Positions 25,869 through 26,390 of a stretch of 64,000 nt of DNA are shown one piece after another. Numbering within the stretch: the stretch's first letter is position 1; every line of letters starts with the position of its first letter. Made by a program: the position numbers and the translations under genes. The DNA is taken from the NCBI GenBank assembly GCA_000004985.1, contig GG738890.1. One strand, 5' to 3'. The notes beneath the pieces are model-generated. The model saw only the letters and a program-made list of their open reading frames with translations. It did not search any database and was not told the DNA's origin. The stretch comes from Naegleria gruberi. Taxonomy: Eukaryota.

Positions 25869-26390
25869 ATGTCATTAATTAATTATCAACATGATAAAGA
25901 ATATTGTGAGCTTTTCATCAATTCATATGATCATGATCGGAATGTTATTTTAATCAAATCTCAAATTGATGAAACAATTCATAATTTGAAAGATAGGATC
26001 ATCAATCAATTACAATTATCACATTCTGACTTTCGACTCGTTTCAACCAATGGTAAAACACTTGATACTAACAAGACAATCAAATTCTATTATGAAAATC
26101 GTATCATTTCCAATTATTCCACTATTAACTTGTTAATTAACTTGAATGGAGGAGGAAAGAAAAAGAAGAGAAAGAAGAAAATAGCCATGGTTCCACCTGA
26201 AAAACATCACAGACATGTTAATGTTCCACTTGCACCCATTTCCAAAAATTATTATGAATATAATTCAGAATATGGAACTATTTCTTGTAATAGAATGGTG
26301 TGTAAAAGATGTGGAGCTGGTTGTTTGATGGCAGCTCATATTGATAGATATTACTGTGGTAAATGTTATTTAACGCTGATAATTAATTGA
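25869..26390 (+). CDS. Divergent ubiquitin-like / ribosomal S27a-type zinc-ribbon fusion protein (paralog-like)
   Basis: 173 aa. The N-terminal half is a degenerate ubiquitin fold ending 'LLINLNGGG'. It is followed by a Lys-rich linker 'KKKKRKKK' and the S27a-like C4 ribbon 'CNRMVCKRCGAGCLMAAHIDRYYCGKCYLT', which compares with S27a '[27 protein letters not shown]'. Codon usage is ordinary and shows no high-expression bias. Confidence 0.6.
   Translation: MSLINYQHDKEYCELFINSYDHDRNVILIKSQIDETIHNLKDRIINQLQLSHSDFRLVSTNGKTLDTNKTIKFYYENRIISNYSTINLLINLNGGGKKKKRKKKIAMVPPEKHHRHVNVPLAPISKNYYEYNSEYGTISCNRMVCKRCGAGCLMAAHIDRYYCGKCYLTLIIN

Follow-up and report, generated by a model that had tools for sequence, protein, structure and literature searches.

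A divergent ubiquitin-like–eS31 fusion gene coexisting with the canonical ubiquitin-eS31 gene in Naegleria gruberi

The small-subunit ribosomal protein eS31 (S27a) is made as a fusion to ubiquitin (Ub), as in human RPS27A/UBA80 and yeast UBI3/RPS31. Ubiquitin loci are usually identical through concerted evolution, gene conversion being the process that normally homogenises them (PMC8122580), and eS31 almost always comes from a single, highly expressed gene. Within the precursor, Ub chaperones eS31 in cis, and assembly is obstructed if Ub is not cleaved off (PMC8122580). The N-terminal extension of eS31 includes a nuclear localization signal, extends as far as the A site, and makes contact with eIF1A and eRF1 (PMC11274626). 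Divergent ubiquitin-like domains (UBLs) fused to small-subunit proteins are already known, namely FUBI-eS30, nematode UBL-1-eS31, and the Giardia, trypanosomatid, and ciliate forms. In FUBI-eS30 (FAU), a divergent, diglycine-ended UBL without the chain-forming lysines of ubiquitin is removed from its partner before assembly (PMC8122580). In Caenorhabditis elegans (PDB 9bh5), trypanosomatids, ciliates, and Giardia, a UBL other than ubiquitin sits on eS31 itself, and the fusion is the organism's only source of this protein. An extra Ub-eS31 copy beside the canonical gene has been described in human, RPS27AP5 (UbP5 + S27aP5), whose product is cleaved and whose eS31 variant enters ribosomes (bioRxiv 10.1101/2024.02.05.578897). 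Here we analyse a 64,000-nucleotide stretch of the heterolobosean Naegleria gruberi (assembly GCA_000004985.1, contig GG738890.1; hereafter the window), in which positions 25869-26390 encode a second, strongly diverged UBL-eS31 fusion, called the paralog below.

The paralog is a complete, intron-less coding sequence (CDS) of 173 codons plus TGA (25869..26390, + strand); its exact coordinates were reproduced as an uninterrupted ATG-to-TGA open reading frame (ORF). Given the base composition of the window (29% G+C, 0.078 stops per random codon), a run of 173 codons would stay open with a probability of ~8e-7. The encoded protein consists of a 12-residue N-terminal extension, a ubiquitin-like stretch ending in ...INLNGG, the segment G-KKKKRKKK-IAMVPPEKHHRHVNVPLAPISKNYYE, and a ribbon CKRC...YYCGKCYLT. 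Its landmarks are the UBL at residues ~13-95, the glycines G94-G95-G96, the KKKKRKKK linker, and the cysteines C145-x2-C148 ... C163-x2-C166. When the whole protein was compared with PDB sequences (phmmer), residues 27-170 were colinear with the Ub-eS31 chains of K. lactis, Euglena, human, yeast, and other ribosomes, with E-values from 1e-21 to 1e-19. The architecture claimed in the original prediction, which had been made from the letters of the window (a UBL, a GGG junction, a lysine-rich linker, and a C4 ribbon), is thus borne out, and the domain order and spacing are those of canonical Ub-eS31 proteins.

The ORF at 25869-26390 is nevertheless a second, divergent copy and not the canonical gene, because N. 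gruberi possesses a canonical Ub-eS31 gene on another scaffold. This bona fide copy, which the original prediction had proposed to look for elsewhere in the genome, is NAEGRDRAFT_56312 (XP_002672394), encodes 154 aa, and lies on a 310-kb scaffold; that of the paralog is another, of 350 kb. The ubiquitin of this canonical protein matches those of human and yeast at 96-97% identity and does not differ from that of N. fowleri. Canonical Ub-eS31 proteins of 154-155 aa are present in each of N. gruberi, N. fowleri, and N. lovaniensis (HMMER, cluster look-up), and the eS31 part of the N. gruberi protein is 96% identical to the other two. The paralog is 29% identical to its own canonical counterpart in the Ub half and 57% in the eS31 half, while the canonical protein is 96% and 53% identical to the human one in the respective halves. 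The description of the ORF as a divergent paralog of the Ub-S27a gene was therefore right, and it is not the only S27a-like gene of the genome. The proposed comparison with dictyostelids was misplaced, since the host is a heterolobosean. Unlike the canonical proteins, the paralog has an N-terminal half only 29% identical to ubiquitin, a 12-residue N-terminal extension, a 4-residue insertion, a less basic eS31 extension, and no high-expression codon bias, and it coexists with the canonical gene. It does not fit the profile of a principal Ub-eS31 gene, which would be the sole or main source of eS31, with a homogenised ubiquitin and codon bias of the ribosomal-protein type.

The ubiquitin-like (putative beta-grasp) half occupies residues 13-95 (25905..26153, + strand) and ends in NLNGG, as delimited by hhalign, Pfam, and AlphaFold2 (AF2). 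Only 22 of 76 positions (29%) are identical to ubiquitin, and the score against Pfam ubiquitin PF00240 is 13.0 bits (E 0.088), short of the cut-off of 25.4, in agreement with the earlier remark that most invariant residues are missing. The Willaertia ortholog described below also remains under the cut-off, at 21.2 bits (E 2.4e-4). Several lines of evidence agree, nonetheless, on the homology of this half to ubiquitin. The match of the less diverged Willaertia UBL to Pfam ubiquitin, at the E-value just given, is one of them, and the colinear alignment of the full-length protein, with the GG in register, is another. Searched alone against PDB, the UBL matched mono-ubiquitin at E 0.05-0.4, always end to end and with the GG in register. 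A profile of the two paralog UBLs aligned by hhalign with ubiquitin over Ub 2-76 with 85.7% probability (E 5.5e-6). An AF2 model computed from a 38-sequence alignment that included canonical Ub fusions is a beta-grasp with pLDDT 81-95, and superposes on ubiquitin with TM 0.8-0.87 at ~2 A (Foldseek). Support from hidden Markov models and profiles is clear for S27a and weaker for the UBL, and it fails for neither half. The N-terminal extension that precedes the core (residues 1-12, MSLINYQHDKEY; 25869..25904, + strand; defined from alignments) was modelled with a low pLDDT of 57, and its Willaertia counterpart is shorter (MSEF).

At the level of individual residues, the UBL departs from ubiquitin proper, which is nearly invariant and has seven lysines, an L8/I44/V70 patch, and an LRLRGG tail. 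Five lysine positions are changed (K6N, K11R, K29R, K33Q, and K63N); the K48 equivalent is present in both genera and that of K27 in N. gruberi only. The hydrophobic patch and nearby positions read L8Y, I44V, H68N, and V70L, and the tail L71I, R72N, and R74N, with L73 and G75-G76 kept. A 4-residue insertion (E76-I79) follows the Y59/N60 equivalent in both genera. The diglycine G94-G95 (26148..26153, + strand) falls in the register of ubiquitin G75-G76 in the alignments and is the putative processing site; the NLNGG junction is common to the N. gruberi and Willaertia paralogs. Three glycines are indeed found at the predicted GGG junction, but only GG is the end of the UBL: the third G opens the eS31 part, an arrangement also seen in yeast Rps31 (RGG|GKKRKKK). 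The Willaertia junction is GG|KKKK and matches that of the Naegleria canonical protein.

The eS31 half is far better preserved. Its zinc ribbon (residues 127-169; 26247..26375, + strand; Zn ligands C145, C148, C163, and C166) scores 48.4 bits against Pfam Ribosomal_S27a PF01599 (E 8.3e-13; cut-off 22.3), over profile positions 3-44 of 44, and the Willaertia ortholog scores 47.9 bits. The Zn-ligand cysteine columns are invariant or at least 90% conserved in the 38-sequence alignment and across 162 eS31 domains. Twenty columns are at least 90% conserved over the ~159 other eS31 domains; the N. gruberi paralog keeps 17 of these and the Willaertia paralog 16, where the canonical set keeps a median of 19 (5th percentile 17). 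The claim that both halves are highly diverged therefore holds for the UBL, at 29% to ubiquitin, but not for the eS31 half, whose divergence is moderate: at 57%, its identity to its own canonical counterpart exceeds that between canonical N. gruberi and human eS31 (53%).

The consistent departures from eS31 fall in the N-terminal extension. This eukaryote-specific, lysine-rich segment of ~25 residues is present and aligned in the paralog (residues 96-128, GKKKKRKKK followed by IAMVPPEKHHRHVNVPLAPISKN; 26154..26252, + strand; from alignment and charge counts), but altered. The motif YxxPKK has become AxVPPEK in N. gruberi, or A/C-x-x-PPEK across both paralogs, and the eS31 part has 16 K+R versus 23 in the canonical protein. 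The peptide stretches IAMVPPEK, NYYEYNSEYGTISCNR, LVSTNGK, and TLDTNK distinguish the paralog from the canonical product, and the non-tryptic C-terminal peptide of the UBL, up to the diglycine, is ...STINLLINLNGG.

The only close relative of the paralog is Willaertia magna ABK040_002188. The N. gruberi and Willaertia sequences are 47% identical (40/86) in the UBL and 72% identical (54/75) in the eS31 part, and the start context aaaaaaaATGTCA is the same in both; for comparison, the TRIP4 proteins of the two species are 56% identical. Conserved in both genera are NLNGG, K48, L73, the four Zn cysteines, the KKKKRKK run, and 40 UBL positions altogether. The dN/dS values between Naegleria and Willaertia (Nei-Gojobori, NG86) are 0.27 for the UBL (dS 1.67) and 0.24 for the eS31 part (dS 0.82), figures that are rough given dS near saturation and the composition bias of an AT-rich genome. 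Both halves are clearly, on this comparative evidence, under purifying selection, and a dN/dS of ~0.25 in each argues against a pseudogene, in which the frame would be disrupted and dN/dS would lie near 1; the N. gruberi ORF is intact, with a break in the Willaertia copy as a caveat. For the same reasons (17/20 columns kept, dN/dS 0.24), the eS31 half retains an eS31-type constraint and the earlier label 'pseudo-ribosomal' is not favoured. Judging from the comparison between genera, the paralog is old.

At the Willaertia locus (L001; JBEGDK010000035.1), the UBL and the eS31 part are encoded in different frames that overlap, 7983-8369 and 8260-8526. The junction there reads agaaaagaaaag, against agaaagaagaaa in N. 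gruberi, and removal of one A from it restores a colinear protein of 174 aa, ...NLNGGKKKKRKKRICMKPPEKCHRHVNV.... Beyond the break, 88 further codons of the eS31 frame are open, which at an unchanged stop frequency per codon has a chance of ~1e-3. Either the A-run was misassembled or the extra A is a frameshift that arose very recently. Programmed frameshifting or transcriptional slippage at this A-run was also considered and set aside, with no evidence for it and an assembly error being simpler. The deposited model ABK040_002188 (267 aa; L001 7983-9863) is a chimera that bridges the break via invented introns, joining the UBL to a piece of the eS31 ribbon and to the C-terminal portion of the gene that follows (ORF 9186-9863), because the extra A apparently splits the real gene into two frames. 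Regarding the phylogenetic distribution proposed for checking, an ortholog exists in W. magna but none was found in the annotated proteomes of N. fowleri and N. lovaniensis. Two metagenome scans returned no further orthologs; the first used poor automatic patterns, and the second a hand-made pattern (GCLMA.H.DR.YCGKC) on a collection evidently without the contig of L007, an environmental relative discussed below.

The origin of the duplication can be traced through shared characters. Of 162 domains, 111 could be scored for a 2-residue insertion (PLxPIxKxYYE) between VxL and YY, and in this set it is confined to the two paralogs and the canonical eS31s of Naegleria; by eye, P0048 also has it. 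Over the 162 domains, the motif LMA[AD]H is likewise restricted to the paralogs and the Naegleria canonical proteins (LMAAH in both N. gruberi proteins), which also share CNR and a first knuckle of the CxxC type. By distance, the nearest neighbours of the paralogs are the Naegleria canonical eS31s. In a neighbour-joining (NJ) tree (computed in numpy from 162 sequences and 78 columns), the N. gruberi and Willaertia paralogs form a pair in 263/300 bootstrap replicates; this pair is sister to the Naegleria canonical eS31s in only 3/300, and its deeper placement is not resolved. The heterolobosean origin rests on the insertion and the motifs, therefore, since the tree cannot place the pair deeper. 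The simplest reading of these sequences is that a heterolobosean Ub-eS31 gene was duplicated before the Naegleria-Willaertia split, and that the Ub half of the copy then escaped the gene conversion that homogenises ubiquitin loci.

As for expression, G+C content at third codon positions (GC3) is 0.24 in the paralog, 0.48 in the canonical CDS (read from the protein-identical contig L005), and 0.18+-0.07 in 27 long window ORFs. The predicted lack of a ribosomal-protein codon bias was thus correct, and such ordinary-gene codon usage suggests low or conditional expression. The gene also appears to be unannotated and missing from the reference N. gruberi proteome, because its exact 173-aa sequence was not found in a 15-billion-protein collection holding that proteome, in which a neighbouring N. 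gruberi protein, used as a positive control, was found. No near-identical protein model turned up in a word-indexed homology search or in an exhaustive HMMER search; the former gave a single useful match and, queried with the canonical eS31 half, missed that half's own protein.

The reading that we favour, and to which we give roughly even confidence, is that of a lineage-restricted, functional paralog of the N. gruberi Ub-eS31 (RPS27A/UBI3) gene, whose product is a precursor of a variant eS31 from which the UBL is cleaved. With the paralogy, the conservation across genera, the purifying selection, the retained eS31 and diglycine determinants, and the weak codon bias established, the sequence would most likely specify a UBL-fused precursor expressed at a low level. 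The paralog would be translated at a low level as a UBL-eS31 precursor, in which the UBL may help folding and solubility in cis, as in yeast Ubi3. A protease of the deubiquitinase (DUB) type would then cut the UBL off after NLNGG, and the variant eS31 so released, with an intact zinc ribbon, a lysine-rich start, and an altered, less basic extension, could occupy the beak site of the 40S subunit. The freed UBL would be unlikely to enter ordinary ubiquitin conjugation, because it is without the R72 and R74 equivalents and most ubiquitin lysines. Human RPS27AP5 is the model for this mechanism, although it is young and minimally changed from its parent, while the Naegleria/Willaertia gene is old and its UBL deeply diverged. 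A more elaborate version is conceivable but, in our estimate, fairly unlikely: that two products are maintained, a new diglycine-ended UBL and a specialised eS31 whose altered, A-site-proximal extension would change initiation, termination, or decoding in some of the ribosomes, for instance when amoebae differentiate into flagellates or cysts.

Several points weigh against this functional interpretation. The paralog is absent from the reference proteome, and we infer its expression, cleavage, and incorporation into ribosomes from the sequence. In Willaertia, the frame of the copy is broken by 1 nt within the A-rich lysine linker (L001 ~8281-8284), which could be a real inactivating mutation, and the dN/dS values have the roughness already stated. 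The missing ortholog in the annotated proteomes of N. fowleri and N. lovaniensis, together with the lack of a UBL-eS31 copy within 8 kb of TRIP4 in these two species, would mean that the gene is dispensable or has been lost in some Naegleria species, or else that it is unannotated there. An AF2 model made from the two paralog sequences alone was uninformative (pLDDT 42); the evidence for the UBL fold is dependent on that for homology, since the better model leans on the canonical ubiquitin in its alignment. Finally, R72 and R74 of ubiquitin matter for recognition by E1 and DUBs, and the R72N and R74N changes might block recognition by the usual processing DUBs.

Four other explanations have been weighed. 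The UBL could be the selected product, either as a novel heterolobosean modifier with its own E1/E2 or as a non-covalent signalling UBL, with the eS31 tail as a carrier or a non-ribosomal zinc ribbon. Purifying selection on the UBL is similar in strength to that on the tail (dN/dS 0.27), its GG and K48 equivalent are invariant along with 40 positions identical in both genera, and FUBI-eS30 offers a precedent for a divergent GG-ended UBL released from a ribosomal-protein fusion (PMC8122580). The eS31 half, however, is the better conserved of the two (72% vs 47%) and keeps eS31-specific columns, so it is not a mere carrier; the environmental relative L007 has the eS31-like part and no UBL, the R72 and R74 equivalents are both Asn, and no dedicated E1 or E2 was identified in this analysis. 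We regard this explanation as unlikely. Somewhat more doubtful is a decaying duplicate, that is, a pseudogene, either young or eroding slowly, or a copy that N. gruberi could do without and whose frame has stayed open by chance. The missing annotation, the ordinary codon usage, the frame break in Willaertia, and the absence of a copy from the N. fowleri and N. lovaniensis proteomes and from the syntenic site would all fit decay. Yet the ORF is intact, against a chance of 8e-7, although the duplication predates the Naegleria-Willaertia split; the dN/dS of ~0.25 extends over both halves; and the four Cys, the GG, and the Lys run are invariant. Even in Willaertia the eS31 frame remains long open past the break and is 72% identical to that of N. 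gruberi, and the break must therefore be very recent or an A-run assembly error.

A fusion that works uncleaved, with the UBL staying on a ribosome-bound or free eS31-like protein, is improbable in our view. Giardia provides a precedent of a non-cleaved UBL-eS31 (PMC8122580), and the change of R72 and R74 to Asn could weaken DUB recognition. The non-cleavage in Giardia has been ascribed, though, to a disrupted GAG junction (PMC8122580), whereas the diglycine of the paralog is intact, conserved, and followed by G/K as in the yeast and Naegleria canonical precursors; moreover, Ub left on eS31 would be expected to clash with the binding of elongation factors (PMC11274626). The last explanation, that the ORF is the sole, canonical eS31 gene of N. 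gruberi and its ubiquitin has simply diverged, in the manner of C. elegans ubl-1 or the trypanosomatids, retains almost no probability. Other eukaryotes do have a divergent UBL-eS31 fusion as their one eS31 gene (PDB 9bh5, 5opt, and 4bts chains), but the explanation is refuted by NAEGRDRAFT_56312, which encodes a perfect ubiquitin-eS31, shows strong codon bias, and lies on another scaffold, and by the orthologs of that gene in N. fowleri and N. lovaniensis, with eS31 parts 96% identical to it.

Compared with the systems described so far, the paralog represents no new kind of system; what is particular to it is its coexistence with a perfect canonical gene and its conservation across two genera. 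It differs from the sole-gene UBL-eS31 forms in being an extra copy, from the Giardia protein in its intact GG, and from FUBI-eS30 in that the partner of FUBI is eS30 and not eS31, the origin is unrelated, and FAU is the only eS30 gene. Further divergent UBL-eS31 proteins were found among the matches (P0005, P0009, and P0025). In the literature library that was searched, no paper joins Naegleria, S27a, and ubiquitin. The gene offers a natural experiment on the role of the ubiquitin moiety in ribosomal fusions, as the cis-chaperone need not be ubiquitin, and on whether protists use alternative beak proteins. In practical terms, it fixes a gap in the N. gruberi annotation, exposes W. magna ABK040_002188 as a chimera, and provides a small evolutionary case.

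Two environmental sequences are related to the paralog. L007 5071-5325 (JGI metagenome 3300002220, MLSBCLC_10071761) is a stand-alone eS31-like gene of 84 aa with its own ATG and no upstream UBL. It bears the heterolobosean signatures (2-residue insertion, CNR, CxxC, and GCLMA) together with a diverged N-terminal extension rich in Arg, reaches 54.7 bits against Pfam S27a, and groups with the two paralogs in the NJ tree. Its existence hints at a small family of alternative beak proteins. The second, L006 (JGI metagenome 3300045996), is a Ub-like-eS31 split by a short intron or frame change into 5732-5974 and 6001-6276, and its source is a more G+C-rich eukaryote. Its linker, GGGKKKRKKKIAVVPPEKRHRHKNVPLA, is nearly identical to GGGKKKKRKKKIAMVPPEKHHRHVNVPLA of the window, but it has no 2-residue insertion, and identity over the remainder of the domain is only ~47%; the 'PPEK' likeness of the extensions may be due either to convergence or to common descent.

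With regard to the genomic context, the paralog is separated by a head-to-head spacer of 179 bp (25690..25868) from a TRIP4/ASC-1 gene, NAEGRDRAFT_80899 (24148-25689, - strand), recognised by its ASCH, zf-C2HC5, and TRIP4_3rd domains. The identity of this neighbour and the ~180-bp spacing agree with what had been predicted: its protein is 100% identical to NAEGRDRAFT_80899, which places the window in N. gruberi, and 68% identical to the N. fowleri and N. lovaniensis orthologs. The bidirectional promoter that the two genes were said to share is an unproven candidate, the observed basis being only the 179-bp head-to-head spacing. TRIP4 is the homolog of yeast Rqt4, a component of the ribosome-quality-control trigger complex, which acts on collided ribosomes near the 40S beak. 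A functional link between the two genes, tempting for an eS31 variant, was considered and rejected as unsupported: the adjacency is absent from N. fowleri, N. lovaniensis, and Willaertia, where the ortholog has different neighbours. Being specific to N. gruberi, it therefore gives no functional clue.

The paralog is the first gene in a block of ~8 kb (25690..33688), delimited with a tblastn synteny map and gene tables, between TRIP4 and a Zn-dependent alcohol dehydrogenase (Zn-ADH) gene (33689-34666). In N. fowleri and N. lovaniensis the Zn-ADH gene directly precedes TRIP4, and the block has no counterpart at the locus, with synteny conserved on both sides; it was either inserted in N. gruberi or deleted from the other lineage. 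Besides the paralog, it contains a 655-aa ORF without a Pfam domain, a Ras-family GTPase, tRNA-Pro(tgg), tRNA-Met(cat), a weak CD59-like ORF, an unknown 278-aa ORF, and an alpha/beta-hydrolase. A mobile-element origin was discarded, as nothing transposon-like was found in it. The 655-codon ORF (26392-28359, - strand; ORF list and Pfam) is convergent with the paralog. The stop of the latter (26388-26390) and that of the convergent ORF (26392-26394) are 1 nt apart, and the 3′ untranslated regions must therefore overlap each other's coding regions. The codon composition of window ORFs is strongly heterogeneous: GC3 is 0.2-0.29 for many of them and 0.04-0.09 for those at 77-1174, 2267-3796, 17407-18510, 18709-19929, and 20042-21025, and the first 4 kb of the window have only 18.6% G+C.

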